Below are positions 11,284 through 61,721 of a stretch of DNA of 64,000 bases, piece by piece. The DNA lies in the IMG/VR virus record IMGVR_UViG_3300045988_149282, positions 33,636 to 97,635 of that record; one strand, written 5' to 3'. This DNA is from a virus (Duplodnaviria > Heunggongvirae > Uroviricota > Caudoviricetes). Positions within the stretch are counted from its first letter, which is position 1. The number at the start of each line of letters is the position of its first letter. The notes under the pieces are model-generated. The model searched no databases. It saw only the letters and a program-made list of their open reading frames with translations, and was not told the origin of the DNA. Position numbers and translations under genes: made by a program.

Positions 11284-11406
11284 TTAAGCCCACCTATGTA
11301 CCTATCATTAAACCTTTACACCGCAGCCGTAGGCATTTAGGCTATATCACATATAAGAAAACAAGTTGTTTCAGACGATAATTATATACGCAAAGGGAAC
11401 TCTCCA

Positions 11407-12075
11407 ATGACCAAGATCTTTGTGGTTGGCGGCACAAAGGGCGGGCCTGGCAAATCCACCGTTGCCCAGCAAATTGCCGTTTGCCTGAAAGTCAAAAAGA
11501 AGAAGAAGGTTTATATTACCGATATAGATATTCAGCGCACGACAACGAGCTGGTGTGAAGACCGTCGACAGAACGAAGACCTTGAGCTGATTCCTTTTGC
11601 ATACGTTCAGGATGACATCATTAAGCACCTAAAATCGCTTCAGGGTAGAGCTGAGTTTGTAGTGGTAGATGCTGGTGGCTTCGACTCCGAAATTCAGCGA
11701 CAAGCGATGCTGATGGCTGACGTTATCATTATCCCGCTGCGTCCTAAGCGTCGTGATTTGAAATCTTTACGTGACATCGATCCTATTATCGACAATGTTC
11801 GCAATGTAAACGATAAAGTGAAGGTCCGCGCGGTCATGAACCAGTGCCCGGCTTTGCCATCACAAGTGTCTCGCATTCTGGCGGCTAAAGAGATTGTTGA
11901 GACGTTTGGCATCGAGTCTGCGCCAGTCAATCTATATAACCGCAACGTCTATGATGATGCGGAAGAGTCTGGTCGCTCTATCTTTGAAATGACCGGTAGC
12001 GAGCGCGACAAAAAGGCGGAAGCCGAGTTTGAAGAATTTGTAGATTATCTGTTGAGTCTGGAGGAAGAAGAATAA
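11407..12075 (+). CDS. parA: ParA/Soj-family partition ATPase (small, type Ib-like)
   Basis: 222 aa; deviant Walker A GGTKGGPGKST at N-terminus; followed by small partner gene. Confidence 0.7.
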   Translation: MTKIFVVGGTKGGPGKSTVAQQIAVCLKVKKKKKVYITDIDIQRTTTSWCEDRRQNEDLELIPFAYVQDDIIKHLKSLQGRAEFVVVDAGGFDSEIQRQAMLMADVIIIPLRPKRRDLKSLRDIDPIIDNVRNVNDKVKVRAVMNQCPALPSQVSRILAAKEIVETFGIESAPVNLYNRNVYDDAEESGRSIFEMTGSERDKKAEAEFEEFVDYLLSLEEEE

Positions 12076-12434
12076 TGTCCATGAAAATGGGTGACCTAGC
12101 AAAGCGCAAAGAGCCTGATGCACCGGCTAAGAACACAACTCCTTTGCGCCAACCAGTCAGACCACAGGGACGCCCGACTCGTGGCAAAGAGAAAATTAAA
12201 AGCCGCACAATGTCACTGGAGGACGAATACTTCGAACTGCTGGAGATGATGAAGTTCATCCCTCGCTTCGAGAAGTTCACTCGTTCTGACGTGATTCGAG
12301 CAGCCATTTTCCATCTGGCAGAGAAGTCACCGCAGGAAATCGAGGACATCGTGAAATTGAATGAGGCGATCACCGCTGCCGATGTCACGATGCGTACCGA
12401 TGAAATCAAACGAGAGTTGATGAAGAAAGGTTAA
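12075..12434 (+). CDS. small partition DNA-binding protein (ParB/ParG-like partner of ParA)
   Basis: 119 aa, basic N-terminus, start overlaps parA stop (ATGA-type coupling); assignment from operon position. Confidence 0.4.
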   Translation: MSMKMGDLAKRKEPDAPAKNTTPLRQPVRPQGRPTRGKEKIKSRTMSLEDEYFELLEMMKFIPRFEKFTRSDVIRAAIFHLAEKSPQEIEDIVKLNEAITAADVTMRTDEIKRELMKKG

Positions 12435-12486
12435 AAATCATGCATTGGCGCGTACATTGCGCCAATGCATAACTACAGTGTCAGCT

Positions 12487-13254
12487 TTATGCCGCGCTAA
12501 CACTATGTTCAGTCCTAACCACCCCAACCTTCACAAAAGGGCTACCGTAGCTTGGTGGCTTCTTGATTAATTTGCCTACATACAGTTTTCTAATATGCTC
12601 ATCGGCTATTCTGCCAACAAATTCATAACGTTTTGTGTCGGGGCCAAGAGCTATATCCCTTGTAAAGTACTGCTGAGAACCGGCTTTGACCCAGCATTCA
12701 ATCTGATAAACTTCCATTATCAGCCCACCATATGTAGCGTAGGCATATTTGAGATTCTCGTCTCTTGGAACCTTTGCCCATACGCCACGCGTAGCTTCAT
12801 ATAATGCCAGAGCGGACATTCCTGACTTGTAGGTGCTGTTTAGCAGGAAGGCAAGACCGGCGTGCTCAGGAGCAATTTCAGTTTCCTCTTGCAGCACTAA
12901 GTGATGGTAGGCGTCCAGTGATATTCTGCCCATCATGGAACCACTTCCTCGTACCTTATTCGTAAGCTCTCCGACCCCCATAAGGTCGATGCATGTCGCC
13001 TCAACAAGTTTGGCTGTGGTTTCATCCATACCATGACGAAGTATATCTATGCCTAATTTTTTATTAGCCAAAAGTTCTTTGATCCGCATGGATTTGGGAG
13101 AGTCATCGGGATACTTGATGTGATCGAGACAACGAGTCGATTTGCCTTTTCCTATGTAAAACGGTCTTTTCATCTTGTCTTCTGTATCATAGAGACAGTA
13201 AACATAGTATTTAGCCTTATCCAATGATCTCGCGTATACCGATAAATCGTCCAT
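12487..13254 (-). CDS. GIY-YIG nuclease-domain protein (free-standing; homing-endonuclease-like or defence nuclease)
   Basis: 255 aa; N-terminal YVYCLYD...PFYIGKGK...R...H matches the GIY-YIG catalytic motif; unrecognised C-terminal domain; only minus-strand gene in this block. Confidence 0.55.
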   Translation of the reverse strand: MDDLSVYARSLDKAKYYVYCLYDTEDKMKRPFYIGKGKSTRCLDHIKYPDDSPKSMRIKELLANKKLGIDILRHGMDETTAKLVEATCIDLMGVGELTNKVRGSGSMMGRISLDAYHHLVLQEETEIAPEHAGLAFLLNSTYKSGMSALALYEATRGVWAKVPRDENLKYAYATYGGLIMEVYQIECWVKAGSQQYFTRDIALGPDTKRYEFVGRIADEHIRKLYVGKLIKKPPSYGSPFVKVGVVRTEHSVSAA

Positions 13255-13364
13255 TATTGCATCTCTTTGCTACTGACTAATGCGTTCTATTTTACACATA
13301 AGTTTTTAATCAATTTAACAGGCTCAAAGTGTAGAGCTTCTGGGCGTCTAAGACGACAAGTTAT

Positions 13365-13420
13365 GCCTGCTTCTGTATATATAAATAATAAGTAACTTAT
13401 TAAATATATACGGAAGCAGG
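13365..13420 (+). terminator. long-stem hairpin, terminator-like (copy A of a duplicated element)
   Basis: 17-bp stem cctgcttctgtatatat / atatatacggaagcagg with AT-rich loop, followed by TCTTTT; near-identical element at 58497-58553. Confidence 0.5.
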
Positions 13421-13527
13421 TCTTTTAAAAGACACCACCAGAACAACTCCCTTCCGTTTCCACTTCCAAAAACTGCCACCAGTCGCTATCATCCGCTCAT
13501 TGTGATAAGTAAGTAACTACCTACCAG

Positions 13528-14277
13528 GTGAGCCACATGAGCCAAATCTTTTTCGATACCATCGACAACGACCAGTACGACTTCATGACAGAGTGGAATA
13601 CCGCTGTTATGGACAAGTGGGTCGCTGAAAACATTGGTTTGTCGCGCTGTAAAGACGAGGCTGAACTCTTCGAGACGAAGTGGTTTGATTACCGCGACAT
13701 GCATCCTCTCATGGCCACCTGTCTTTTTACGGAGGCATACAAACGTCAGTACTCAAATATCATGCTGACGCACGGTCGCGAACACTTTGAAACAGCTCCG
13801 TTCACCACCGGGTTAAAACGCCTGCCTTATCAGGAGTTGTCGACTGCCAATAAAACGTCGCTATGGAAAGCACGCCAGTTTGCGGATCGCTATTGCTGCT
13901 CATACGACTACTTTATCTCCACCGTTCTTTCCGCAGCTGCACGACGGCTGTGGGACAAGCTGCCGCGCCCACAGCATTTATGGCAGCCAGAACTGATTGA
14001 GATATTTGAAGAGAAATTAGCCAGACGCGCAACAACCCGTCTGGATGACTCTCTGGTTAGCTTTAAGCATATGGGAGACATGCAGTTCAACCCGATTCAG
14101 GAAAGCTATTTTGAGTGGATTCTGGAGCGTTTGCGCACCATCCCTCGCAGCAAGCGCATACGCGCAATTTTCTCCGCTATCTGGCTAATGGAAATCGTTC
14201 CAGAGCGCCTTATTTCCGCCCACTTTCCAGAAGAACTGGAAGAAGCACGGCGGTTTATTGATCCCCTATCTAATTAA
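13528..14277 (+). CDS. hypothetical protein (possible replication accessory/helicase loader by position)
   Basis: 249 aa ORF with RBS; directly upstream of DnaB-like helicase; no motif recognised. Confidence 0.4.
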   Translation: MSHMSQIFFDTIDNDQYDFMTEWNTAVMDKWVAENIGLSRCKDEAELFETKWFDYRDMHPLMATCLFTEAYKRQYSNIMLTHGREHFETAPFTTGLKRLPYQELSTANKTSLWKARQFADRYCCSYDYFISTVLSAAARRLWDKLPRPQHLWQPELIEIFEEKLARRATTRLDDSLVSFKHMGDMQFNPIQESYFEWILERLRTIPRSKRIRAIFSAIWLMEIVPERLISAHFPEELEEARRFIDPLSN

Positions 14278-14320
14278 CTAATACTAGAAAACAATTTGTT
14301 TAAAAAACAAAGGAAAGCAC

Positions 14321-15661
14321 ATGACCGAACTTTGCCATACAGGACGCGGGCTGTCCGAAGAGTTTGATGAAGATTTCCAGAACAGACTGACGGCATATTT
14401 TTGTCGTGATCACGAGTTTCTTACTCGTGCGGGAGATCTGGTTGTGCCTAGCCAGTTTGCCAATGCGGCCAATGCCATATTGGTTAATATGGTTTCGGGC
14501 TATTACCGTATGTACAAGAGCGCGCCCTCTTCATCTGCAATTCTGGATATGCTTAAGCGTGCGAAACGCGATAAGACTATCCGTGAGGAACTATTCGCCG
14601 ATGTTGTTGCTGCGTTTAAGCGCATTCTTGCAGAAAAATTGTCCGATACCTCGTACATGGTTGACCAGGTATCAACCTTCGCAAAAAGTGTAGCGTTTGA
14701 TGATGCTCTGATTAAGGCTGCTGAACTGAAAGAGAAAGGCGACTTTCAGGGGGCGATGGCAATCATGGCCAAGGTTCAGCAGATTGGATCGAACGAAGCG
14801 ACCGGAATCTATGACTACTACACCTCCGCAAGTGAGCGATTGAAAGCGCGTGAATATGAGGCTTCAGAGGAGTATGTACCAAACAGTATTACAACTGGAC
14901 TCCCTCTTCTCGATAGGTTGCTGTACCAAAAAGGCTGGGCAAAGCGCGAAATGGTGCTCTTCATGGGGTTCGCTAAATCCGGTAAATCGACCGCAATGGG
15001 TGAGTTTTCCATAAACGCAACGCTTGCTGGCTACAATGTTCTGTATCTCTCGCTGGAGGTTCACACCACCATTTTATCCGACCGTTTTGATGCAAGATTG
15101 TCGGAGACAGAAATGTCCAAGCTGGTGGAACGGCGCGATGAGGTTCATCGTAAGTTGGCAGAGTTGGGAGCCACGAAGGGGATTGGTAGTTTGTGGGTGG
15201 TTGAGCGTCCGTCAGGAAGTATGTCACCGGCAGATCTGGACCGTATGCTTAACAGCATGAAAGCCAACGGCATGGTGCCTGACATGGTTGTTGTCGACTA
15301 CGCAGATTTGATGCGTGCCAGTTATGACCTTCGTGATGATCGCGCCAACATTCGTAGCATCTACACCGATTTACGTGCTCTTTATGACAAGCATAACGTT
15401 GCTGGGATCACGGCATCGCAGACAAACCGTGAAGGTGGCGCGTCAGAAGTTGCCACAATGATGCACGCTGCCGACAACATCGAAAAAGTACGTATTGCTG
15501 ACCTGGTAATAACGATCAACAAAACCGAAGAAGAAGAAGCGAAAGGAGAGGCTCGTCTCTACTTTGCCGGTTCACGTAACCAGCAGGGAGGGATCAGCAT
15601 TCGCGTTAAACAAAACCTCGAACAAATGCGCTTCATTGAGCGAATCTTAGACGTTACCTAA
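14321..15661 (+). CDS. dnaB: DnaB-family replicative DNA helicase
   Basis: 446 aa; Walker A GFAKSGKST, Walker B MVVVDYADLM, SQxNR-like ASQTNREG motif. Confidence 0.7.
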   Translation: MTELCHTGRGLSEEFDEDFQNRLTAYFCRDHEFLTRAGDLVVPSQFANAANAILVNMVSGYYRMYKSAPSSSAILDMLKRAKRDKTIREELFADVVAAFKRILAEKLSDTSYMVDQVSTFAKSVAFDDALIKAAELKEKGDFQGAMAIMAKVQQIGSNEATGIYDYYTSASERLKAREYEASEEYVPNSITTGLPLLDRLLYQKGWAKREMVLFMGFAKSGKSTAMGEFSINATLAGYNVLYLSLEVHTTILSDRFDARLSETEMSKLVERRDEVHRKLAELGATKGIGSLWVVERPSGSMSPADLDRMLNSMKANGMVPDMVVVDYADLMRASYDLRDDRANIRSIYTDLRALYDKHNVAGITASQTNREGGASEVATMMHAADNIEKVRIADLVITINKTEEEEAKGEARLYFAGSRNQQGGISIRVKQNLEQMRFIERILDVT

Positions 15662-15667
15662 AAAATA

Positions 15668-15695
15668 AGCGTGGAGAACACCTCCACGCTTGATT
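15668..15695 (+). terminator. hairpin (possible terminator/attenuator) between helicase and primase
   Basis: agcgtggag aacac ctccacgct stem-loop; weak T tract. Confidence 0.3.
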
Positions 15696-15742
15696 CATTG
15701 GTGAAACAACTTTTCTTTTGCCAAACCACAAAAGAAAAACAC

Positions 15743-16924
15743 ATGAACCTTTATATTATATCAACATTTAGGTTGGTCACAATATTGCCTGTTAAAAGTG
15801 GAATTATCGTGAGCGAGCTGAAAGAGCTAATTACCGAATTAGATTTTGAACAATGGTTGGATACTGAAGGTATCGTTTATCGACGTGGAGGCGTGAGTAC
15901 TCGCGGTCGTGAAGTGAATATCAAGGAGTGTCCGGTATGCGGCAGCTCCAACTGGAAGGTATATTTCAATCTGACCAGTGGCGTCGGTAAATGCTTCGCT
16001 GGTGATCATCCCGAAGAGATTCAGTTCAATAAGCTGGTCTTCCTCAAGCACTACAGCGGCAAATCACGACGACAGTTCGAGGAATATGTGCAGAACGCCC
16101 TTCTTTCCCAGGGGTGGGCACCAAAGAAAGAAGAGCTAGTGCTTGCAAGCACAGTCGAGTTAGAGGAGCCAGTTGCACTCCCTCGTCATTACGAGCTTCC
16201 TATAGATGGCCGTCTTCCAGACTATCTGGTTGAACGAAACATATCGCCTGAAATGGCAAAGTATTTTGACCTACGATACTGCGTCGAAGGCAAGCACGCC
16301 TATGTAGATCCGTATACAGATCAGGTTAAAGGACAGATATTCGATATGCGAATACTGATACCGGTTTACGATCTGGATGGGGTAATGAAGACATTTCAGG
16401 GACGAGACATTACCGGTACAGCAGAACGCCGCTACCTCTTTCCTATGCAACTTCCAGCTTCAGGTAAGTTTCTCTACAACGGCCATAATGCAGTCGGCAA
16501 ACAGACTGTAGTTGTCTGTGAGGGGGCGTTCGATGTTATGGGGGTTAAACGAGCTATTTTTGACGAAGAAACATTACGTGATTACGTGGAACCAATAGGA
16601 ACGTTCGGGATGCATCTATCTGGTAACACCACTCAGGATGCAGAAGATCAGTTAGGCGCGTTCCTGACGCTCAAGGCGCGTGGGTTACGTAATGTGATCA
16701 TGATGTGGGATAGTGAAAAGCAAGCTATACGCAACACGATGGCCGCAGCCAGGCGACTGACCAGTATTGGTCTTAATGTCAAAGTGGCGTGTTTGGGCGA
16801 GGAAGGACTCGACCCGGGCGATGCAACGCCAGAGCAAATCATCAAAGCCTATTATCGGGCAAAACCGTATACCAAACAGTTGGAGTTGCAAAGCAAGGTT
16901 TTGGGCATTAAGGCTCTATCATAA
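15743..16924 (+). CDS. dnaG: DnaG-like DNA primase (zinc-binding domain + TOPRIM)
   Basis: Zn-finger CPVCGSS...KCFAGDH; TOPRIM motifs VVVCEGAFD and MMWDSE; start placed at ATG 15743 because track start 15671 lies inside a hairpin. Confidence 0.65.
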   Translation: MNLYIISTFRLVTILPVKSGIIVSELKELITELDFEQWLDTEGIVYRRGGVSTRGREVNIKECPVCGSSNWKVYFNLTSGVGKCFAGDHPEEIQFNKLVFLKHYSGKSRRQFEEYVQNALLSQGWAPKKEELVLASTVELEEPVALPRHYELPIDGRLPDYLVERNISPEMAKYFDLRYCVEGKHAYVDPYTDQVKGQIFDMRILIPVYDLDGVMKTFQGRDITGTAERRYLFPMQLPASGKFLYNGHNAVGKQTVVVCEGAFDVMGVKRAIFDEETLRDYVEPIGTFGMHLSGNTTQDAEDQLGAFLTLKARGLRNVIMMWDSEKQAIRNTMAAARRLTSIGLNVKVACLGEEGLDPGDATPEQIIKAYYRAKPYTKQLELQSKVLGIKALS

Positions 16925-16999
16925 CAATCACCTTTAAAATAAGTAGATGATTACTTATCTTTCTGTGAGAATACTTTCATCTGTTAGCTAGGAGTTGGT

Positions 17000-17782: not shown

Positions 17783-17837
17783 TCTCTCCGCGCGTCGTTT
17801 TTTACGCAAATAACGATAGGTAAGTACAAGATTATTT

Positions 17838-33500: not shown

Positions 33501-34064
33501 CGTCCGTTTGAGATGAACCCCAAACGTTCGGCTGAAATTAACGTACTCATGACGCGGATGGCGGCTGAAATGGGCTTAGGTGATGAACTAATCCGCCCCA
33601 GCATTGGTATTAAGCCGAAAATCATGATCATTCTGGACAATGCGAACGGCAATGATGCTCGAACCGGTTACTTTATGGAGAACGGATACGACGACTTTAA
33701 GGCCAAGCTATTGACGGCTGGAGATTTACGCATGGGCGATCTCTATGTCACAGGTGTTTGCAAGAAGGTTAAAGACAAAGAAAAAGACTACACCAAAGAC
33801 GAGATCGGCCAGTTCACCGACTTTATGCGTGAAGAGATCAATCTGGTGCGTCCGACCTATGTGCTGACGTGTGGCAGCCGGGCAACTTCATTGTTTAACA
33901 ACAAAAACAAGCCATCCGATTTGGTCGGCAGGAAGGAGTATCTTCCAGACCTTGACGTTACTGTCTTTTACGGGTTTAACCCCAACATTCTTTACTTCAG
34001 ACCTGAAGAGGGAGAACGACTAGAAGCGATATTAACCGACGTAGCAGAAACTATTAAGTCGTGA
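30546..34064 (+). CDS. dnaE: DNA polymerase III alpha subunit (DnaE-like)
   Basis: 1172 aa; N-terminal PHP domain, conserved polymerase core motif GPGRGSSAGSLVAWCIGITNVDP and catalytic PDADLDF. Confidence 0.8.
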   Translation: MKALMVRTDFSLGESALKAENAVKIAREAGYTAVISADSMNIASVIPLQRAAGDDMAVICGVKLNIVDDPTYEHRVKLAKESMRCMESLERGRNYSFTALIKNEQGYRDICELMTVANTREQFYFVPRLSLEQLVSTYAKGNIILLTSDIDSVFQRNDFAKITSSLITAGGKDNFYSVVYPHPTPFYDQINVRAMKVASALKIEPVAFYPAYYESIDDADIKDIAHMVTNNIKIDQPHRLRIPHQRDNAINGRRHLLEALKAFSIRMDVPVTAAMASTTQDTIIDACTWRWHELPPALPKMADDEPATLMKLAVAGLRKRLTTKEFGYTPPASENRVYVERLKYEMDTLTRLGFCGYFLMVRDLMNHSRETGIPVGPGRGSSAGSLVAWCIGITNVDPIRHGLLFERFINPERLDLPDADLDFSQARRHEVIEYLNERYGEDYVAGIPNFTYLGAASALRDTARIYGVESADMAVSKELKNVEDDSLPLEELREQLASLDKYATKYPDAFNAACKLQSLMRGFGRHAAGMIVAGVPLTERTPVERRGDARCIAFDKRYCEAMGLIKLDVLGLATLDLLDSAKRYIKENTGEDINLDAISLEDRKVLDGFAAGYTQGVFQLESGPMRKLLKDLGGGIEPMSFKTVVATTALFRPGPIQSGMLDDYVSVAKGFMTPESLHPVLDELTAETNGVILYQEQTMNATRLLAGFTMAEADGVRKAIGKKDMEKMKSMGEKFIVQAQAGWIDVELEDGTTQRIHRAEHFKCEDGTLKTVEEALEYGAKLPINAVRVTASHPGLSEMKAKEIWTAFEKNGAYQFNKSHSVAYSLISYQSMWLKIHYPAEFFAAALTILGEDKHQGLVKDALTYGIRVLPPDVNVSSNRIEIRTLEDGSQVLYAPFSAVKGCSENGCQAIMRAREKVGGKFESLAQFEEAVEKRACNSRVRESLQKVGAFASIEPGSLPATDPERLRDQAELMGNLVIDAVKASRPFEMNPKRSAEINVLMTRMAAEMGLGDELIRPSIGIKPKIMIILDNANGNDARTGYFMENGYDDFKAKLLTAGDLRMGDLYVTGVCKKVKDKEKDYTKDEIGQFTDFMREEINLVRPTYVLTCGSRATSLFNNKNKPSDLVGRKEYLPDLDVTVFYGFNPNILYFRPEEGERLEAILTDVAETIKS

Positions 34065-39241: not shown

Positions 39242-39258
39242 CTCCCCTAAAAAGTTCA

Positions 39259-39284
39259 GGCGTCCAGTTGGACGCCTTTTTTAT
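39259..39284 (+). terminator. rho-independent terminator
   Basis: aggcgtcc agtt ggacgcct hairpin followed by TTTTTTA. Confidence 0.7.
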
Positions 39285-39332
39285 CGCAATTATCTTATTA
39301 AGAAAACAATTTGTTTAAAAGGATAAGAAAAC

Positions 39333-48290: not shown

Positions 48291-48324
48291 TTTCATTGAT
48301 AGGTAAGTGCTTATCTATTAACAT

Positions 48325-48356
48325 GGGCCACTATATTTAGTGGCCCTCTTTATTTG
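48325..48356 (+). terminator. hairpin with T tract between resolvase and nrdA (terminator or 5-prime UTR attenuator)
   Basis: gggccact atattt agtggccc followed by tctttatttgg. Confidence 0.5.
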
Positions 48357-48363: not shown

Positions 48364-50679
48364 ATGATAAGCATCGTAAAACGTAACGGCCAAACAGAGC
48401 CGTTATCCGAAGAAAAATACAACCGCGTCGTAATGTATGGCGTAGAAGGCATTCGTGGTGTAAGCGCATCCGCTGTAGCAATGGGAGCTGCGGCCAGCAT
48501 TTTTGATGGGATGACCACCAGCCAGTTGCATGAGGCTTTGGTTAAATCTGCCGCTGATTTGATCTCACCAGAAGCACCAAATTACTCACAGGTGGCTGCC
48601 CGCCTGAACATTTTTAAAATCCGCAAAGATGCCTTCGGTCGTTACGACTATCCGAACTTCTACCAACACATTGTCAAGAACGTTAACAAGGGCGTTTATG
48701 ACAAGGATTTGCTGACACATTATTCGTTTGAAGAGATCGAAGAACTCGGCAATTACATTAAGCCGAAACGTGACGATCTTTTTGGCTATGCAGCTACGGT
48801 GCAGTTGCAAAGCAAATACCTCGTTCAAAACCGTGTTACTGGTGAGATTCATGAGGGGCCCCAACATATCTATATGCTGGTAGGCATGTGTCTGTTCCAG
48901 AATTGGGAAGACGACTGCGCTGGCAAAACACGTATGGAGATGGTCAAAGGTTTCTATGACGTTACAAGTACGTTCAAACTGTCTCTGCCCACACCAATCA
49001 TGGCCGGCGTCCGTACTCCAACCCGTCAGTTCTCCAGTTGTGTGCTGATTGAGTCTGGCGATAGTCTGAAAGGGATTAGTGCAGCTTCAGCCGCAATTAT
49101 CGACTACGTTTCACGTCGTGCTGGAATTGGTATTGGTTTTGGCCGTATCCGTGCGTTGGGCAGCGAGATCCGCAATGGTGAAGCCACCCATACCGGAGTT
49201 ATTCCATTCCTGAAGCATTTCCAGACGGCTGTTAAATCTTGTTCGCAAGGTGGTGTTCGTGGTGGCGCAGCAACAGCGTTTTACCCGATCTGGCATCTTG
49301 AAGTTGAAAGTCTGCTGGTGGTGAAAAATAACCGTGGTATTGATGAAAACCGCGTTCGCCATCTTGATTACGGCGTCATGAGTAACCGTCTAATGTACCG
49401 TCGACTCGTCAGAAGCGAGAACATCACTCTGTTCAGCCCGCATGATGTGCCTGATATGTACGAAGCCTTCTTCACAGACCAGGAGCTGTTTGAAAAGCTG
49501 TACCATAAATACGAAGCCGATGATTCAATTCGCAAGAAGTCAGTACCTGCCATTGAGCTGTTCTCATCTCTGATGCAGGAACGAGCGTCCACGGGCCGAA
49601 TTTATATTGCGAACGTCGATCATATTAATGAGCATGGCGCTTTCATTCCTGCTCTTGCACCTGTCCGCCAGTCAAACCTGTGTATGGAGATCACCCTACC
49701 CACCCGTCCACTGGCATTTACCGACGACCCGAACGGTGAGATCGCGCTATGCACTTTATCCGCTTTTAACCTCGGAGCCATCCGTTCACTGGAGTCTCTT
49801 AAAGAGGTGGCGTTCTATGCCGTTGCTGCACTGGATTCGTTACTGGATTATCAAGACTATCCGATGGAGGCAGCCGAAGTGCCTGCCAAAGCTCGTCGTA
49901 GCTTGGGAATTGGTGTAACCAACTTTGCTTATTACCTGGCAAAGAATGGCGTTCGTTATTCTGATACCGCTGGCAATAAACTGGTGCATGAAACATTCGA
50001 AGCTATCCAGTATTACCTTCTTGATGCCAGCTGCCGACTTGCTGAAGCAAAAGGTGAGTGTGACTGGTTTGAGCAGACCAAGTACGCAATTGGTCAGTTG
50101 CCGATCGACCATTACCGTTCTTCATTAGACGAAAGTGGCGAAACCAACTTTGAGTTAAAGATGCCGTGGGAAGAACTGCGTGAACGTATTGCAAAATACG
50201 GCCTTCGCAACTCCACACTGACGGCACAAATGCCATGCGAGACTTCCAGCCAGATCACTAATTCCACCAACGGCATCGAACCGCCTCGTGGCCCGGTGTC
50301 GGTGAAATCTTCTAAGGACGGCATCGTTAAGATGGTCGTGCCTGAGTTTGAAAAACTGAAGGAACAGTATGAATACCTGTGGGATATGCCGGACAACCGC
50401 GGCTATCTGACAAAGGTGGCGATCATCCAGAAGTTCTTTGACCAGGCTATTTCAGCCAATACCAACTATGACCCTTCTCGCTTTGAAGGCGATAAAGTCC
50501 CAATGATGACGCTACTGTCAGATTTGCTTCTCGCCTACAAGATGGGAGTTAAAACGCTTTACTACCACAACACCAGAGATGGGGCAGGAAAGCGTGATGA
50601 CGACGAACCGCAAAATCCACTGACGCAAGCTGTAGCCGTCGAGCCAGAAGATGAGTGCGACGGAGCCTGCAAAATCTGA
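48364..50679 (+). CDS. nrdA: ribonucleoside-diphosphate reductase class Ia, alpha subunit
   Basis: 771 aa; collinear with E. coli NrdA including PTRQFSSCVLIE, NLCMEI and C-terminal redox cysteines (ECDGACKI). Confidence 0.9.
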   Translation: MISIVKRNGQTEPLSEEKYNRVVMYGVEGIRGVSASAVAMGAAASIFDGMTTSQLHEALVKSAADLISPEAPNYSQVAARLNIFKIRKDAFGRYDYPNFYQHIVKNVNKGVYDKDLLTHYSFEEIEELGNYIKPKRDDLFGYAATVQLQSKYLVQNRVTGEIHEGPQHIYMLVGMCLFQNWEDDCAGKTRMEMVKGFYDVTSTFKLSLPTPIMAGVRTPTRQFSSCVLIESGDSLKGISAASAAIIDYVSRRAGIGIGFGRIRALGSEIRNGEATHTGVIPFLKHFQTAVKSCSQGGVRGGAATAFYPIWHLEVESLLVVKNNRGIDENRVRHLDYGVMSNRLMYRRLVRSENITLFSPHDVPDMYEAFFTDQELFEKLYHKYEADDSIRKKSVPAIELFSSLMQERASTGRIYIANVDHINEHGAFIPALAPVRQSNLCMEITLPTRPLAFTDDPNGEIALCTLSAFNLGAIRSLESLKEVAFYAVAALDSLLDYQDYPMEAAEVPAKARRSLGIGVTNFAYYLAKNGVRYSDTAGNKLVHETFEAIQYYLLDASCRLAEAKGECDWFEQTKYAIGQLPIDHYRSSLDESGETNFELKMPWEELRERIAKYGLRNSTLTAQMPCETSSQITNSTNGIEPPRGPVSVKSSKDGIVKMVVPEFEKLKEQYEYLWDMPDNRGYLTKVAIIQKFFDQAISANTNYDPSRFEGDKVPMMTLLSDLLLAYKMGVKTLYYHNTRDGAGKRDDDEPQNPLTQAVAVEPEDECDGACKI

Positions 50680-50784
50680 CATATGGTGGGGTGTATCCCC
50701 ACCTTCTCTTTGATTTGTAAGCCTTGTTTAAACAAATAAGATAACAACTTGTTTAAACACATCAAAAAGCAAAAGGAAAAACAC

Positions 50785-52943: not shown

Positions 52944-52968
52944 GGTGGCCTATGGCCACCATTTTTTT
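52944..52968 (+). terminator. rho-independent terminator
   Basis: ggtggcc tat ggccacc hairpin followed by ATTTTTTTAT. Confidence 0.7.
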
Positions 52969-53045
52969 ATCTATCTGGTCTTGTTCTCTCAATAAATGTA
53001 AACTCACACAATGAATAAGTGGTTACTTATCTTTGTGAGGTTTTT

Positions 53046-54149: not shown

Positions 54150-54150
54150 T

Positions 54151-55681: not shown

Positions 55682-55742
55682 AAATTGTTCGCCTCTTCGA
55701 CATTGCGACAATAAAACTCTCAAAATGGGTTAAGGATAAAAA

Positions 55743-56162
55743 ATGTTTAGTGAAATGTTGCTTGAAGATGAACTGGATCGGAAAACAACAGAGGCTTTGA
55801 TTCGTGTAGCGGACGAACATTCCCGGTCGCTTATGAGCGATCGAGAGGCTCGTCTGGCTATTCGTGCCATATTCGAAACTGCGCAGGGGCTTGTTGGTAC
55901 ACAAGTGGGTGAAGCCATTAACATCGCCATGTCTCAGTTCAGTGAAGGCAGTAAAAAGCCTCTGTTTCCTATGCATTTGATGCTGGCTGGTGGCACAGTG
56001 CTTTATATCTCTGTTTGTCTGGATAGCAACCAAATCAATATTCTCAACACTGTGTCAGGTAAGTGGAAAGATCCGATTGTCTGTGAAACCAGTGAAGAAA
56101 CTTTGAAAAAAGCGGCTCAATTTGTACGTAGCGCACTACTTAAGGGCGCTAAGAAGTTGTAA
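55743..56162 (+). CDS. hypothetical protein
   Basis: 139 aa ORF with RBS. Confidence 0.4.
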   Translation: MFSEMLLEDELDRKTTEALIRVADEHSRSLMSDREARLAIRAIFETAQGLVGTQVGEAINIAMSQFSEGSKKPLFPMHLMLAGGTVLYISVCLDSNQINILNTVSGKWKDPIVCETSEETLKKAAQFVRSALLKGAKKL

Positions 56163-56171
56163 GGAGTTCTG

Positions 56172-56729
56172 ATGACAACGATTGTTGCAGGCATCGATAT
56201 CGAGTCTACGGGACTGGATTTCCTTGCTGGTCATAAAATTATTGAAATCGCAATTACCCGCTATGAACTGGAGACACAGAGACATATTGATAGTCTGGAG
56301 ATGCGTTTTAACCCTCGCAGAAACATAGATCCGAAAGCTCAAGCCGTTCATGGCATTTCATTGGAACAGCTCGCAGCTGAACCTTTGTTGTCAAATCATG
56401 CCAGCGAAATTGGCGCTTATATGGGGGCATGTAGTGTGTGGGTTGCTCATAACGGCGAAGCATTTGATATACCATTTATTCGACACGAGTTTTCAGGGTA
56501 TGGAGTAAGACTGCCAGAAGTTCCTGTTATAGATACTATGTTATCGGGATTTTGGGCCACAGAAGACGGAAAACGTCCCCGCCTTGAAGAGTTGGCCTTC
56601 TCTCTTGGCTTTATATACGATCATGCCAAAGCACATAGTGCCTTATATGACACAAACTTAATGATGCAATGCTTCTTTAAGGCACGTAATAAGTACGGAT
56701 TTTTTAAATTACCCTCTGAAATTGTGTAA
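56172..56729 (+). CDS. DnaQ-like 3-prime-5-prime exonuclease (DEDDh, proofreading epsilon-like)
   Basis: 185 aa; Exo I GIDIESTG, Exo II WVAHNGEAFDIPF, Exo III HSALYDTNL; AAGGAG RBS. Confidence 0.7.
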   Translation: MTTIVAGIDIESTGLDFLAGHKIIEIAITRYELETQRHIDSLEMRFNPRRNIDPKAQAVHGISLEQLAAEPLLSNHASEIGAYMGACSVWVAHNGEAFDIPFIRHEFSGYGVRLPEVPVIDTMLSGFWATEDGKRPRLEELAFSLGFIYDHAKAHSALYDTNLMMQCFFKARNKYGFFKLPSEIV

Positions 56730-56733
56730 AACA

Positions 56734-56771
56734 AAAGCCTACTTTAAAAAGTTTAAAGTAGGCTTTCTTTT
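56734..56771 (+). terminator. rho-independent terminator
   Basis: aaagcctacttt / aaagtaggcttt 12-bp stem followed by CTTTT. Confidence 0.65.
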
Positions 56772-56887
56772 AAAGAACAGTCGCCTTTCAATCATTTCCT
56801 GCCTGTATTTAATACTTTTCCGCCTGATAGGTTTAGTCAAAATGCAGCTATCGAAATGCAAATGTAACCAAACAGAAGGAGACTTAC

Positions 56888-57697
56888 ATGAGTTCGGTTG
56901 AAAATGTAATGACAAATGATGATCTGGACGAGCTGACAGCCATGTTGCAATCACTTGATGAACCAGTAAAAAAAGCTGCACAGGTTGAAAATACTGATGA
57001 TATTGACGATCTGTTGCTCGGCCTAGATGCTGGCGTAGCCATGAGTTCTGATGATGTTGCCGAAGAACTGTTCAATGAAGAAAAAGCAGGTGATTTCAGC
57101 TCTGCTTTAAATGAGTTGGAGTTAGCGCATGAGCCTATAAACGTAATTAACGCTGAAAGTGTTGAAGCTGCCGAAAACGAGCCAGAACAATTGGGATTTA
57201 TTGAAGTTGAAGAGTGTGTTGAGGTTAATGATGAATTAAAAGTTCAACAGTCAAATGATAGCAATACAAATAAAAAAGCTCGTACTGCAAGAGGTCCTCG
57301 TTTTACTTTAAGTGATAAAGATGATTCGTTTTTCAATAAAGCGGGCTTAGAAAAAGATATTTTCTTAGACGCTTACGATAACGCGCCTGTCAAAGCAAAG
57401 GATAAGATATTAAACCTTCTTAATTGGTTTAGCGGAGGTCCAGATATTAGTGTTTACACGGTAATTTCCATGAGACACCTTCTCACAGAAAAGAAGGCAA
57501 CAAGTAATAGTATTAAGATTGCTTTAATGAGCAATCCAGAAAAACCGTATCCGCTTAATACTGCGTCAACTCAGGCTGGGCAAATGATGGCTGTATTTCC
57601 AGCGACAGGAATTGCCGTTAGAGACGGTGGAAATCTAACATTGAACGAAGAATCACCGATCGTTAAGAAGTTTGTCGCGGAGTACACTATTGGATGA
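56888..57697 (+). CDS. acidic protein of unknown function (DNA-mimic/anti-restriction candidate)
   Basis: 269 aa; N-terminal ~110 aa extremely Asp/Glu-rich; AAGGAG RBS; directly upstream of Dam-family methyltransferase gene. Confidence 0.45.
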   Translation: MSSVENVMTNDDLDELTAMLQSLDEPVKKAAQVENTDDIDDLLLGLDAGVAMSSDDVAEELFNEEKAGDFSSALNELELAHEPINVINAESVEAAENEPEQLGFIEVEECVEVNDELKVQQSNDSNTNKKARTARGPRFTLSDKDDSFFNKAGLEKDIFLDAYDNAPVKAKDKILNLLNWFSGGPDISVYTVISMRHLLTEKKATSNSIKIALMSNPEKPYPLNTASTQAGQMMAVFPATGIAVRDGGNLTLNEESPIVKKFVAEYTIG

Positions 57698-57880
57698 CGT
57701 TCCCCTACTTAAAATAAAGCCCATAGAGAGCTTTATAGTACTGGGTAAGCCAATCACATACCCAGCACCACAAAAACGCGCCAGAGAGCTTCTCGTTTGC
57801 ATTTCTGGCGTGTTTTATTTGATTGCCAGACATAAAATCAAATGCAAAAATAGGTATATACTTACCTATCGAGAAAGAAG

Positions 57881-58474
57881 ATGATTGCAGCCGAAAAAAT
57901 CAAACAGCGAAAGCGCGACAACTCTCTTCGTGACCTCTGGAGAACACCTGACTGGCTGTTTTCTGCCATTCAACGTTATCTTGGAGTGACATTTGATGTT
58001 GACGTTGCCTGCAACAAGGACAATGCAAAGCTGCCTAATTTCATAGGCGTTGAGCGTGATGCTTTGAAATCTGAATGGGGACAGCCAGGTACAATTGCCT
58101 TCCTCAATCCACCCTACTCCAAAATCTACCCCTGGATTGATGCGGCTATACGTGAGCAGGCTCGCGGAGTTACAACAGTGATGCTAATTCCTCAATCCCT
58201 CGATACAAAGTGGTATGAGCGTGCAACAGAGTGTGCGAATGAGACGATTATTCTGTCTGGTGGCCGCGTAGCGTTTGTCGAGCCTGACGTAAATCTGGGT
58301 CAGGTAGAAGTAAACATCAACCCAGGTGGCAGTATGCTCGTTGTTTTTCGAGGATTCTGTCAGGACGCTGGGCACTCTATAAGCAAGATCCCTTTGGACG
58401 TCATGAAAAGTCTGGGAGGGTATGATCCTGCGAATGTGATCAGGAAAAAAAGACCATCAAAGAAGGCTGCTTAG
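57881..58474 (+). CDS. dam: phage-type DNA N6-adenine methyltransferase (Dam family)
   Basis: 197 aa; WRTPDWLF motif and catalytic NPPY tetrapeptide typical of phage Dam-family MTases. Confidence 0.7.
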   Translation: MIAAEKIKQRKRDNSLRDLWRTPDWLFSAIQRYLGVTFDVDVACNKDNAKLPNFIGVERDALKSEWGQPGTIAFLNPPYSKIYPWIDAAIREQARGVTTVMLIPQSLDTKWYERATECANETIILSGGRVAFVEPDVNLGQVEVNINPGGSMLVVFRGFCQDAGHSISKIPLDVMKSLGGYDPANVIRKKRPSKKAA

Positions 58475-58496
58475 TTTGTTCTGGTGTCTGTAATTA

Positions 58497-58553
58497 GCCT
58501 GCTTCTGTATATATAAATAACTACATATTAATTATTAATATACGGAAGAAGGC
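58497..58553 (+). terminator. long-stem hairpin terminator (copy B of duplicated element)
   Basis: gcctgcttctgtatatataaataa...atatacggaagaagg with T tract; first 24 nt identical to copy at 13365. Confidence 0.55.
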
Positions 58554-58659
58554 TGTTTTGTATCAGAGACTCCAGACCTGAACATCACTACAGAATCCAC
58601 TAGAACCCCTTCCCAGACGCTTTAAAATCGATTTTATGAACCACTTTAAGGAAACCAAC

Positions 58660-58890
58660 ATGTCATACCCGACTAATGTCGTTGCGCTCGTAGAGAGCGA
58701 TTTTCTGGCCCAGGCTCGTGAAATGATGAAAGATCGTGAGCAGGCTTTCAACTTGTACGAATGGGCAATTAAGTGCTTGCATCTTGGCGAGCATCGCGAA
58801 CTTGTTGAACAGCTTTTAGGTGAGTTGATCAATGAGGTGTTTGCCTTGAATGTTCAACTACATGGTAGAGAAAATAATCAATCACAATGA
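58660..58890 (+). CDS. hypothetical small protein
   Basis: Start chosen at ATG 58660 behind AAGGAAACCAAC (track start 58636); helical, no motif. Confidence 0.3.
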   Translation: MSYPTNVVALVESDFLAQAREMMKDREQAFNLYEWAIKCLHLGEHRELVEQLLGELINEVFALNVQLHGRENNQSQ

Positions 58891-59473
58891 TAGATAAGTA
58901 CAAACTATTCATAAAGTGAATTGTAAGTGCTAAGATCTGATAGTTTCCAGTCGTAGACTGGAGACTCGACCTGATGGGTGGGGGTAAGCGTCACTGGCGT
59001 CAGGTTTAAAAAAGCTCACTACCAGCGTAGAACTGGTGCCGTTTAGGTGTCGGGGAAGGGGGAACCAAAGTGAGCAGAGACAAGGGTCACTTTATGATTG
59101 TCGAGTCTGGGGTGTTTCGAGAGGTTGAATCCAGTACTCCCCTTCATAAAGTGTGGGAAGATCTCGGTTCTGGGGTGCTGTCATCCATAACTTCCCAAGT
59201 CTAAGCTGGCAGTAGACTTAGACCATAACTTTTCAGGTTATGAAACGACCAGGTTGGTGAGAGATTTTTATACTCACCTCCCTGGGAGAGTATTACCTGA
59301 AAAGACAACCTCTCACTTCGTTCGAGGTGAACTTCACTCACTTCGTTCGTTCAGTTCAGGTTTATAAAAACCTGTTCTGGGAAGTAATTTGTTTATTTTA
59401 ATAATTATTAACACGCACGCGTGTGCGCACGCGCGAGGAAAAAATCGGCGCGGCGCTTGATTCAGGAGTTTAT

Positions 59474-60064
59474 ATGACGACGAAGACACCAGCCCGATCG
59501 CAAGCAAAAACTCGCAAAAAAGCCAAAAACAAAAATTCTCCCCGCACCAATCCCACAACGCCTGTCGTAGAGTTCAATCCCCAGCTCAAAACCGTGAAAA
59601 TCTTTAGTGATGGCTCTTGCCTTAAAAATCCGGGTGGCCCGGGCGGTTACGGTATCGTTCTCCAGTATCGTGGTGAGGAACGCGAATTCTCAGATGGTTT
59701 TCATAGCACCACCAATAACCGCATGGAGATGATGGGGGCACTTATCGGGCTGGAGCGTTTGAAATATCCATGCAACGTTATTTTGCACTCTGATAGCCAG
59801 TATCTGAAAAACGGCATGACACAGTGGATGAAATGGTGGAAACGCAATGGATGGATGACTTCTGACAAAAAACCGGTAAAGAATGTTGATCTGTGGAAGC
59901 GTCTGGATGAGGCCGCAAGTCGACATAATGTTCGCTGGAAGTGGGTTAAAGGTCACGCCGGGCATCGTGAAAATGAAATATGTGATCGACTCGCGAAGAT
60001 CGCAGCTTTTTCAGCAGCAGATATGCCTCACAAGAAAGATATTGGTTTTGTTTATAACAAATAG
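59474..60064 (+). CDS. rnhA: ribonuclease HI
   Basis: Collinear with E. coli RNase HI ([50 protein letters not shown]); start at ATG 59474 behind AGGAG (track start 59423 adds an unlikely N-terminal extension). Confidence 0.85.
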
Positions 60065-60212
60065 TAAGTAAGTGTTTACCTATCATTTCAAATCATGTAT
60101 CTTATCGGCGTCAGGATGACAATGTGTTGGTAAGACACAGTTCCAGGATGGAACGAGAAAGGCGGCTGGCAATCGCCAGCCGCAACTCTTTCTGACACTG
60201 GATGGAGTCCAC

Positions 60213-60707
60213 ATGGCACGTCAAACCTATTTCACTTCTGTAACTAAACGTCCTCGTTCTTTACGTCAAATTTTGGCCGAATTATTTAGCGGTCGTGTTA
60301 TGTCACGTCTTGATGAACTAGAGACTACCGTTCGGTTGCTGAATGAACGTTTAGATAATCAAGCGTCAGTTGTTGCGAACGTGGGGGCGATTGTTGCCTC
60401 TGGTTCTTCACGCGAAGCGAAAAATGCACGGCCTTTAGTGAAGGAGAAAAACAACAAGGACAGTTCGAATGGAAAATTTTCAAAGAAAGAGGCTGAAACC
60501 AATGGCCTACGTTCTCATTATAGTTTCACTGGCGACGGTAGCCGTTCCAGCCGGTCAGAGCCTTTTGATGCCGGATTCATCCATCACCACACCTTCGTCG
60601 ACGACAATTACCACCACTCCAGTGGAGCGTCCTGTCACTCTGGATGGGATGGCGGTGGATGCGATACCTCAACTTCATCCAGTTACTCAGGATCATGCTG
60701 TGACTAA
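60213..60707 (+). CDS. hypothetical protein with Ser/His/Cys-rich C-terminus
   Basis: 164 aa ORF with RBS; C-terminal low-complexity region containing HHH and CxxxxxxC patterns. Confidence 0.35.
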   Translation: MARQTYFTSVTKRPRSLRQILAELFSGRVMSRLDELETTVRLLNERLDNQASVVANVGAIVASGSSREAKNARPLVKEKNNKDSSNGKFSKKEAETNGLRSHYSFTGDGSRSSRSEPFDAGFIHHHTFVDDNYHHSSGASCHSGWDGGGCDTSTSSSYSGSCCD

Positions 60708-60716
60708 GGCGGTTGT

Positions 60717-60905
60717 ATGAACTGGTTTTCAAATCACTTTGGAAAAATTTGGCTGGCAATTCTTGCCCTCATGGCCGCCGGTTGGGTATCGAACATTATA
60801 AAACTTGTTTGCTCTGGCGATCTCCAGTTTCAGGCTGGCATGACCTTGGCTCGTGTAGTTGGGATTTTTATTTTTCCAGTCGGTTCGGTACTTGGTTATT
60901 TCTGA
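60717..60905 (+). CDS. small membrane protein
   Basis: 62 aa with two hydrophobic segments. Confidence 0.3.
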   Translation: MNWFSNHFGKIWLAILALMAAGWVSNIIKLVCSGDLQFQAGMTLARVVGIFIFPVGSVLGYF

Positions 60906-60998
60906 CGGTTGTTAGTGCATATGCATTGACCGTCTTTGCGTAAGCAATTTATTTAACTAGAAAACAACTTGTTTTGACAAATAACAAAAGGAAAACAC

Positions 60999-61424
60999 AT
61001 GTTAGGTTTCTTCAAAAAGAAAACTCGTAAAGCAGTTATCGAAGTCAAAAAAATGGAGAACCGTGATGCGGTTGAGGCCACCGTGTGGGGCGCGTACATG
61101 ATCTCCTATGCCGACGGCACATGTGACGCAAAAGAAATTGCCATTCTTGAGAAGACAATTGCAGCTCTGCCTGCGTTTTCTCCGTTTGCTGGTGAAATTG
61201 CCCAAATGAGCGCCAATATCCGTGCTCGTTACGAAGCGTCCCCTCGTTCTGCTAATGCACAGGCTATTCGTGAGCTGTCTGATATTGCGGGTACTCCAGA
61301 GGCGGTCGATGTTCTGTGTCTGTGCCTTGATATTGCCGATCAGGATGGCATTGGTGAACAAGAAGAGCAGGCACTGAAAAAGATCGCCCAGGCGCTTCAG
61401 TTGTCACTGGATGCTTATCTCTAA
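60999..61424 (+). CDS. TerB-like domain protein
   Basis: 141 aa; helical, ISYADGTCDAKEIAILEK and LDIADQDGIGEQEEQAL resemble the two metal-binding repeats of TerB-family proteins. Confidence 0.4.
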   Translation: MLGFFKKKTRKAVIEVKKMENRDAVEATVWGAYMISYADGTCDAKEIAILEKTIAALPAFSPFAGEIAQMSANIRARYEASPRSANAQAIRELSDIAGTPEAVDVLCLCLDIADQDGIGEQEEQALKKIAQALQLSLDAYL

Positions 61425-61582
61425 TGCTTGAGAGATTCCGGCTTGTGACCGTCATTGCTCTTCTGGTGATGGCGGTGTTGGTGGATTTTACGGGAAAGAT
61501 GATGTCTGTCATTTCTGATGGCCTCCTCATTGGTTTGGCGATCTACTTCGCTTATCCGCTAGTCCGTAAAGCAACGTGTTAA
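61424..61582 (+). CDS. small membrane protein
   Basis: 52 aa, not in ORF track; start overlaps upstream stop (TAATG); hydrophobic; followed by terminator hairpin. Confidence 0.25.
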   Translation: MLERFRLVTVIALLVMAVLVDFTGKMMSVISDGLLIGLAIYFAYPLVRKATC

Positions 61583-61584
61583 TG

Positions 61585-61613
61585 ACAAGGGCCAAATGGC
61601 CCTTGTGTTTCGT
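61585..61613 (+). terminator. rho-independent terminator
   Basis: acaagggcc aaat ggcccttgt hairpin followed by GTTTCGTT. Confidence 0.55.
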
Positions 61614-61721
61614 TGACCGAAATAGAGAGTTTGCACCTTTACGTTTAGCTTGCTCCCCTTTTATGCCACATCACAATAAAGCCAATAAGAAAACAACTTG
61701 TTTAAGCATTAGGAAAAACAC

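Follow-up and report, generated by a model that had tools for sequence, protein, structure and literature searches.

Which function is served by a short palindrome, AAACAA-N-TTGTTT, that recurs upstream of genes in a 64,000 nt stretch of viral DNA (positions 33,636 to 97,635 of IMG/VR record IMGVR_UViG_3300045988_149282, in the following called the window)? Megablast comparison identified the window as part of an SSU5-like phage-plasmid, with 98–99% identity to the Escherichia phages Cyrano (pLF82), PhiR41_1 and CMS-2020a, and about 77–82% identity to Salmonella phage SSU5 and Klebsiella relatives. The gene order, compared to the Cyrano annotation, is tail-fibre, lysis, parA, replication, int/repressor, cobT, DNA polymerase, recombination, repA, nrdAB and small genes. 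A sequence-only reading of the window had proposed that the palindrome is bound by a dimeric protein and may mark a plasmid-maintenance regulon. Our analysis supports the first of these views but not the second: the palindrome is probably the operator of a putative phage-encoded repressor, positioned over the transcription start of lytic promoters.

The exact 13-mer AAACAANTTGTTT occurs five times in the window (11359, 14289, 39304, 60962 and 61691), while 0.02 occurrences are expected, and none of 100 dinucleotide-preserving shuffles reached five copies, so that the 6-1-6 palindrome itself is real. Copies with one mismatch are present at 26894 (AAATAA...) and 50742 (TAACAA...). Allowing up to two mismatches yields only weak enrichment (13 found versus 6.1 expected), and a copy with two mismatches at 60942 is doubtful. 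All seven good copies (sites 1 to 7 in Table 1) are intergenic, falling into the non-coding portion that a greedy call of open reading frames (ORFs) puts at roughly 10% of the window. The distance to the ATG is 29–48 nt from the start of the motif and 16–35 nt from its end. On the + strand, the three nucleotides 5′ of the motif are AGA at six sites and AGT at one, and all seven occurrences of AGAAAACAA are on the + strand. When k-mers common to the intergenic regions of Cyrano and of the Klebsiella plasmid pJN2-26 were counted in an unbiased way, only this motif, the GTAAGT..ACTTAC palindrome family and AAACACATG emerged.

Seven of the copies listed in the sequence-only reading (at about 11358, 14286, 39301, 60960, 61690 and 50745, and a weaker one at 26885) were recovered. 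The copy listed at 50725, however, consists of everted half-sites, TTGTTTAAACAA (50724–50735), which form a palindrome of their own 7 nt upstream of the nrdB site. This sequence degenerates in SSU5 and Klebsiella, and is therefore probably non-functional. The mismatch at site 5 (nrdB), a T, is also present in Cyrano, SSU5, pJN2-26 and the Yersinia pestis plasmid pMT1. SSU5 (42729) has a perfect orthologue of the weaker site 3 and pJN2-26 a nearly perfect one, and the position corresponding to the decayed copy at 63320 is perfect in both SSU5 (82468) and pJN2-26 (19221).

To describe the element, we aligned 91 non-redundant sites on the palindrome, taken from the window, three complete genomes and the SSU5-like loci among 160 IMG/VR loci retrieved with helicase and tciA queries. 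The arms are near-invariant, with near-maximal information on both sides, and the centre base is random. The functional unit is longer than the palindrome, and is an asymmetric 16–17-mer, AGA-AAACAA-N-TTGTTT-A (A at −3 in 74, G at −2 in 78, A at −1 in 78 and A at +14 in 72 of the 91 sites). Conservation extends farther in the 5′ direction, with T at −14 (85/91), A at −12 (72/91) and TG at −22/−21, which gives the consensus TGnGATAAT-N10-AGA-palindrome. The best members of the family are paralogous promoters of an early-gene cluster outside the window: they have TGCGATAAT or TGGTATTAT, followed by 10 nt and AGA-palindrome, with a CTTGAC/CTTTAC-GCCTT block at −35 and often a terminator hairpin just before it. 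If transcription starts about 7 nt after the −10-like hexamer, the palindrome covers about +8 to +20.

An intrinsic terminator is located 27–85 nt upstream of four of the seven window sites, meaning that transcription has to restart there. The terminator directly upstream of site 4 leaves about 50 nt into which the promoter must fit; there, TTGGAC-N17-TATCTT can be read 7 nt before the palindrome, and an overlap of terminator and −35-like hexamer as at this site is also present in SSU5 at 56845. Upstream of site 1 (parA) the sequence reads TTTACA-N17-TAGGCT, the helicase promoter of the SSU5 lineage has TTGATC-N16-TAGTAT ending 4 nt before the palindrome, and site 7 represents the canonical cassette, CACAAT-N10-AGA. 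All promoter readings place the site between −10 and about +20. The hexamers at −19 to −14 of sites 1 to 7 are weak (GGCTAT, CTAATT, CTACAT, CGCAAT, CTTGTT, AGCAAT and CACAAT).

A fixed spacing to the −10-like T and asymmetric AGA and A flanks would also be expected if the 16–17-mer switched genes on, either as part of the promoter (initial-transcribed or downstream region) or as the site of a phage activator or sigma-appropriating factor. The window promoters are indeed far from the sigma-70 consensus, silence in the lysogen is equally expected when an activator is missing, and a distant relative from Moellerella has a different conserved block at equivalent places, abutting a TATAAAT box. 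Nevertheless we regard this explanation as unlikely. It would be unusual for an activator to bind downstream of the −10-like element, as the position of the site would require, and a second copy present at a number of promoters overlaps the −35 region, a repressive location. The distance from −10 to palindrome varies, which is more in line with a separate protein site than with a core element, and promoter downstream regions are not characterised by a strict dyad around a free centre base. Moreover, the early-cluster promoters have TGnGATAAT, and should need no activator.

Over whole genomes, 18 sites with at most one mismatch were found in Cyrano and 20 in SSU5, with a comparable set in pJN2-26, and all of them are intergenic and upstream of genes. 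The genes behind the element include terS, the head of the packaging and structural operon, the small early-gene cluster, in which each gene has its own cassette, and genes for nucleotide metabolism and replication. The terS gene and the early cluster lie outside the window, and terS is preceded by tandem copies 25 bp apart. At 15 distinct promoters a second copy is found exactly 51 bp upstream, inverted with TCT towards the core, and overlapping −35; besides these two arrangements no recurrent spacing between copies was detected.

Across relatives from E. coli, Salmonella, Klebsiella and Yersinia, no intergenic block is conserved better than the palindrome. Cyrano, SSU5, pJN2-26, the more distant Klebsiella plasmid CP027615 and pMT1 have retained orthologous sites, while the flanks diverge. 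In the regions upstream of the helicase (35 distinct sequences), parA (16), tciA (21) and the gene starting at 61722 (16), the palindrome stands out, apart from the Shine-Dalgarno sequence (SD) and ATG, as the intergenic block with the best conservation or as the sole one conserved throughout, with flanks that differ between lineages. The tciA upstream region (site 6) has no other fully conserved block in sequences from three lineages, and the region upstream of parA (site 1), nearly invariant in the 16 distinct relatives, is the most conserved of all upstream regions with the motif. Other phage types (mostly contigs of 34–64 kb) serve as a natural control here: their tciA genes, with 84–87% identity, have unrelated upstream sequences and no palindrome in 13–20 kb, versus 2–7 palindromes in SSU5-like loci of equal size. 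The syntenic 108 kb Moellerella plasmid NZ_CP093251 contains no exact copy and three one-mismatch copies without promoter context. A de novo search of this plasmid revealed no replacement palindrome, only a different block present in five copies.

The motif does not differ between elements resident in Escherichia, Salmonella, Klebsiella, Enterobacter and Yersinia, which could mean that it is read by a conserved host protein of the Enterobacterales, allowing the phage-plasmid to sense the state of its host. In a scan of viral contigs for the 16-mer, however, multiple copies occurred, among the matches listed, only in contigs of about 50–112 kb, several of them SSU5-like contigs already in our set, and in one 12 kb fragment, with single chance matches mixed in. 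The Moellerella element, although syntenic, is entirely without the motif as a promoter-associated element. We know of no enterobacterial regulator with an AAACAA-N-TTGTTT consensus, and consider a host protein the least probable of the explanations discussed here.

To see how the genes behind the element behave in the prophage state, we used published RNA-seq data of the LF82 lysogen (S1 table, one normalised value per Cyrano gene, background median 9.8; PMC9928086). Apart from parA, the first genes behind the motif are at or near background, with 7.1 for terS, 21 for the helicase, 7.8 for cobT, 5.7 for CYRAN_58, 12.9 for nrdB, 7.0 for tciA, 7.1 for CYRAN_87, 6.3 for CYRAN_93, 7.5 for CYRAN_101, 12.8 for CYRAN_105, 12.2 for CYRAN_106, 5.7 for CYRAN_108, 6.7 for CYRAN_110 and 25.5 for CYRAN_111 (PMC9928086). 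This holds although some of the promoters have extended −10 elements. Maintenance genes are on, with 133 for repA and 141–592 for toxin-antitoxin genes (PMC9928086). The element is therefore a mark of the lytic genes, which are silent here, and the motif-led genes are off in the lysogen as expected of repressor operators, which is a correlation only. The idea of a plasmid-maintenance regulon is not supported by these data: the element precedes terS and small early genes, its genes are at lysogen background while repA and the toxin-antitoxin genes are expressed, and parA is the sole exception.

A palindrome close to the SD could also act in the mRNA. The seven leaders fold weakly, with minimum free energies of −2.3 to −5.2 kcal/mol and z scores of +0.3 to −1.6, and share no common hairpin; the hairpin of the palindrome itself appears in one of the seven minimum free energy structures. 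Natural variants of the arms (AAACATGTTGTTT, AAACAACATGTTT and AAACAAGATGTTT) are uncompensated, and an Rfam scan returned three tRNAs and no match to the palindrome leaders. Folding of the seven leaders and the Rfam scan thus gave no sign of an RNA hairpin or riboswitch-like leader, and this reading was rejected. Weak folding and uncompensated variants, together with the copies at −38 and the exact 51 bp spacing, favour recognition of duplex DNA by a symmetric protein. The dimeric, sequence-specific DNA-binding protein suggested by the sequence-only reading thus appears to be the best interpretation of arms that are equally conserved around a free centre, with no compensatory changes.

Another form of action in the mRNA would be an operator in the 5′ leader, close upstream of the SD, bound by a translational repressor or stability factor in the manner of RegA of phage T4, or by the FljA-like protein that these genomes encode elsewhere. 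FljA acts on fliC mRNA. The motif is predicted to be transcribed and abuts the SD in many copies (TTGTTTAAGGAG), leader copies all have the same orientation relative to the gene, and the product of CYRAN_114 belongs to the FljA family (Flag1_repress, E 1e-80), with a weak Hfq-like tail. However, a dyad without stable hairpin or compensatory changes points to duplex DNA, and the inverted copies at −38, at their exact 51 bp spacing, lie outside the transcript of the promoter concerned. The FljA-like gene is at about twice background in the lysogen (PMC9928086), and its expected target is the host flagellin. Overall, action in the mRNA seems quite improbable to us.

Considering all these observations, we favour repression at the DNA level. 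In our model, the operator would be bound by a phage-encoded, sequence-specific dimer or dimer of dimers. The palindrome would be built into short cassettes of terminator, promoter, operator and SD, which head most rightward (lytic) transcription units of SSU5/pHCM2-type phage-plasmids. Host sigma-70 RNA polymerase is predicted to start 1–14 nt upstream of the palindrome or inside it, and the bound protein, occupying about −3 to +20, would block open-complex formation or promoter escape. At promoters with an inverted second copy over −35, two bound units may act cooperatively, with a DNA loop of about 5 helical turns between them. Such binding would silence the early, replication, nucleotide-metabolism and packaging operons of the plasmid prophage.

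The best candidate for the binding protein is, in our opinion, the 92 aa protein CYRAN_117 (phrog_1466), whose gene lies outside the window, downstream of a UvsW-like helicase gene. Homologues are present in every motif-bearing genome examined (Cyrano, SSU5, pJN2-26 and pMT1), and its gene has a value of 114 in the lysogen (PMC9928086). The Moellerella homologue differs in an N-terminal segment (VVQFRAT instead of [YHS]CQV[AQK]L[ST]), which would be the DNA-reading strand if the protein were of the ribbon-helix-helix (RHH) type. The family has no recognisable DNA-binding domain. Its AlphaFold2 model, with a predicted local distance difference test (pLDDT) score of 52, is unusable, and sequence searches against the PDB were empty.

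A second small protein, of 119 aa and encoded directly after parA, was considered as a global regulator comparable to omega or KorB that would link partition, replication and nucleotide metabolism in a plasmid-maintenance regulon. A perfect site is located upstream of parA, in the most conserved upstream region; the protein combines a basic tail with the sequence KSRTMSLEDE and two predicted helices in a strand-helix-helix-like pattern, and its gene is expressed in the lysogen (89 versus the background of 9.8; PMC9928086). The centres of the half-sites are 7 bp apart, matching the heptad spacing of omega-type sites, and the Moellerella relative keeps AGAAAACAA only near parA. But the Moellerella protein has an identical core (KSRTxS...RSDV.RAA) on a plasmid without palindromes, and pMT1 has palindromes and no homologue, which disfavours the protein as the binder. 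Furthermore, there is a single palindrome at parA and no repeat array of a type Ib centromere/operator in 11200–13600, and most of the regulon consists of lytic genes without expression above background in the lysogen. Assigning an RHH fold to this protein is a guess, since the AlphaFold2 model (pLDDT 68) gave no Foldseek match (E > 4) and PDB sequence searches were empty. A partition-linked regulator is therefore very unlikely to be the one that reads the palindrome.

Further candidates were rejected. The XRE-type helix-turn-helix repressor beside the integrase (Pfam HTH_19, E 8e-4, below the gathering score; phrog_8 transcriptional regulator) has a perfect palindrome of a different kind, GGTAAGTGCTTACC, in its upstream region, at a position shared with Klebsiella, and this region lacks the AAACAA motif. 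Its gene is absent from SSU5, which keeps the motif, and a near-identical recognition helix is found in the Moellerella plasmid without the motif. The ParB/KorB-like genes CYRAN_119 (5.0) and CYRAN_120 (9.5) are at background in the lysogen (PMC9928086), and the UmuD-like CYRAN_98 is an S24 peptidase only.

The palindrome at the XRE gene belongs to a second dispersed family, (ATA)GGTAAGTnCTTACC(TAT), with 35 matches at up to three mismatches versus 10.5 expected. Its perfect copy is located in the XRE repressor's own upstream region, and the palindrome is kept in SSU5 and Klebsiella and degenerate in Moellerella. It is probably the operator of the XRE repressor and the first motif family of the sequence-only reading, from which AAACAA-N-TTGTTT had rightly been distinguished. 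The copy at nrdA occupies the spacer of a TTGATA-N17-TAACAT promoter. This promoter-like site is directly followed by a strong, terminator-like hairpin at 48325–48346 (both within 48296–48346), with the ATG at 48364; SSU5 and Klebsiella have conserved this layout, which resembles control by leader attenuation or antitermination. A bolder proposal, which we make with considerable reservation and think rather doubtful as a whole, is that two parallel silencing networks span the genome of SSU5/pHCM2/pMT1-type phage-plasmids: one based on GGTAAGTnCTTACC, probably with the XRE repressor, and one in which a new type of repressor (candidate phrog_1466) caps about 20 promoters, those of terS and the replication genes among them, through AAACAA-N-TTGTTT, similar to C1 of phage P1 and independently evolved.

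Several points weigh against a phage repressor acting at the palindrome. The promoter geometry was deduced by aligning the sites with stronger paralogues located elsewhere in the genomes, beyond the window; within it, the −10 and −35 hexamers are weak, and a strict sigma-70 scan flags none of the seven sites. The gap between the −10-like hexamer and AGA is not uniform (1 to 10 nt), and the conserved AGA and 3′ A flanks are asymmetric, which a symmetric dimer does not explain. The value for parA is 49.8 in the lysogen, about five times background, despite a perfect site (PMC9928086), and the silence of the other genes could also be due to weak promoters or H-NS. nrdA is located behind the GGTAAGTnCTTACC palindrome and nrdB behind the AAACAA motif, though co-expression of the two genes is expected. 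Finally, the presence/absence case for CYRAN_117 rests on one motif-less genome, that of Moellerella, and the structure predictions of both small candidates are uninformative.

Table 1. Copies of the AAACAA-N-TTGTTT palindrome and associated features, with positions in the 64,000 nt window.
Feature	Position	Strand	Context	Basis
Site 1, AGAAAACAAGTTGTTT	11356–11371	+	35 nt before parA ATG (11407)	exact match
Site 2, AGAAAACAATTTGTTT	14286–14301	+	19 nt before DnaB-like helicase ATG (14321)	exact match
Site 3, weaker copy, AGTAAATAATTTGTTT	26891–26906	+	19 nt before CobT-like gene ATG (26926)	one mismatch in 13-mer
Site 4, AGAAAACAATTTGTTT	39301–39316	+	16 nt before ATG of DUF7238 gene (39333; Pfam)	exact match
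Site 5, AGATAACAACTTGTTT	50739–50754	+	30 nt before nrdB ATG (50785)	one mismatch
Site 6, AGAAAACAACTTGTTT	60959–60974	+	24 nt before ATG of TerB/TciA-like gene (60999)	exact match
Site 7, AGAAAACAACTTGTTT	61688–61703	+	18 nt before ATG of 189 aa gene (61722)	exact match
Decayed copy, AAACAAATCTTTT	63320–63332	+	before DUF4942 gene (63348)	two mismatches, AGA lost
Intrinsic terminator	11257–11276	+	ahead of parA promoter, site 1	terminator scan
Intrinsic terminator	39258–39277	+	descending arm TTGGAC doubles as −35-like hexamer of site 4 promoter	terminator scan
Intrinsic terminator	50685–50703	+	between nrdA and nrdB site 5 promoter	terminator scan
Terminator-like hairpin	61585–61606		upstream of site 7	
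Strict start context, example, AGGAAAGCACATG	14311–14323	+		regex/pattern counts
Other strict start contexts	ending at ATGs 34190, 34739, 38207, 39814, 43747, 50785, 60999, 61722	+		
119 aa protein, disfavoured candidate binder	12075–12434	+	directly after parA	
XRE-type helix-turn-helix repressor, disfavoured candidate binder	25978–26364	−	beside integrase	HTH_19 and phrog_8
GGTAAGTnCTTACC palindrome family	8329, 22785, 26396, 48302, 57853, 60067 (14-mers); also 34638, 38158, 43618			

The sequence-only reading had also described a start context shared by more than 10 genes. This number is reached by the loose form AARCACATG (13 on the + strand, none on the − strand), but not by the strict form AGGAAA(A/G)(A)CACATG, with nine occurrences. 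The context is present at four of the seven palindrome genes only (14321, 50785, 60999 and 61722), and is a ribosome-binding-site and spacer habit of + strand genes, independent of the palindrome element. In three leaders a third AACAAA(GG) copy stands just before the SD (14302–14312, 26907–26918 and 60975–60990), where weak pairing to the TTGTTT arm is possible (about −2 to −5 kcal/mol).

Some further features were noticed in and near the window. At 13366–13420 a 55 bp inverted repeat, CCTGCTTCTGTATATAT...ATATATACGGAAGCAGG, was found. In the linear Cyrano record this sequence runs across the two ends, immediately upstream of terS, so that it may be related to packaging or to the genome terminus. 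The 17-mer of its right arm, the only part searched, occurs once in Cyrano, at the record terminus, and the internal copy thus appears to be extra in the genome of the window. Beside it, a 255 aa ORF on the − strand (12487–13254) with a LEM-3-like GIY-YIG nuclease domain (Pfam E 5.5e-07) takes the place of the Cyrano DUF2971 gene, and may be an insertion of the homing-endonuclease type. An intergenic stretch of 24 nt at 59412–59435, CACGCACGCGTGTGCGCACGCGCG, is almost perfectly alternating in purines and pyrimidines, Z-DNA-prone and partly palindromic. CYRAN_43 (in the neighbourhood of window positions 22150–22704 and 22956–24284) has a value of 7084 in LF82, by far the highest of all plasmid genes (PMC9928086). 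The window has a 184 aa ORF on the + strand there, and an extra 442 aa ORF on the − strand that has no Pfam match and is outside the Cyrano gene list; the high signal could stem from a non-coding RNA. The FljA-like CYRAN_114 (SSU5_121; Cyrano L002:46989-47510, outside the window) is labelled as a transcriptional regulator. As its family (Pfam Flag1_repress, E 1e-80) represses phase-1 flagellin post-transcriptionally, it may silence the host flagellin. The five-copy block of the Moellerella plasmid, TATATAAATACTATGGGAGCTAGGC (NZ_CP093251 positions 556, 13520, 51915, 75614 and 42188), includes one copy upstream of terS, and its core, TATAAATA, recalls T4 late promoters.

We found no prior description of the AAACAA-N-TTGTTT motif in the searchable literature on SSU5/pHCM2, promoters, operators and palindromes, nor one of lysis-lysogeny control in SSU5-like phage-plasmids. 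The control element is of an ordinary kind, a dyad operator at the transcription start being a textbook principle, but has apparently so far not been described for the SSU5/pHCM2 family. SSU5-like phage-plasmids are common in clinical Enterobacterales and include pHCM2 of Salmonella Typhi and pMT1; members from Klebsiella and E. coli can carry resistance genes. A defined operator at about 20 promoters provides a direct handle for finding the regulator, a map of the lytic regulon and a simple sequence marker of the family.

Systems with short repeated sites resemble the element in different respects. RegA of T4 recognizes a short AU-rich element containing UUGUU near the ribosome-binding sites of many early genes. 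RegA sites overlap the AUG and are non-dyad, whereas the sites described here end 16–35 nt upstream and also occur outside leaders. Small dimers of the omega (pSM19035) and ParG type read short subsites with a centre spacing of 7 bp, and one protein acts on several promoters. Both small candidate proteins show a comparable strand-helix-helix-like pattern, with an RHH fold unconfirmed, but omega sites are arrays of at least seven heptads, and the sites described here are isolated inverted pairs. The lac system is similar in geometry only, with unrelated proteins and sequences: a main site just downstream of the start and an auxiliary site 51 bp (about 4.9 turns) away would allow looping, although the auxiliary site overlaps −35 in our case.

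The closest formal analogue is the KorB operator OB of RK2/RP4, TTTAGCGGCTAAA, for which the sequence is published together with that of the KorA operator OA (PMC11790492). It is likewise a 13 bp 6-1-6 palindrome, repeated round the replicon at or near promoters and defining a global regulon. KorB, however, is a ParB-family CTPase expressed in the plasmid state, whereas Cyrano does not express its ParB-like genes above background as a lysogen, so that its element does not belong to the KorB/ParB type. In addition, the sites described here are all promoter-proximal and downstream of −10, not distal. With regard to function, the C1 network of phage P1 is the closest analogue. P1 C1 operators are asymmetric 17-mers; here we see a 13 bp dyad without sequence similarity to them, no C1 homologue was noticed, and a second palindrome family coexists. 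In P1, a phage-plasmid, C1 repressor sites are scattered round the genome at many promoters and lytic functions are held off (PMC8198154), which is comparable to the about 20 sites at promoters throughout the genomes described here.

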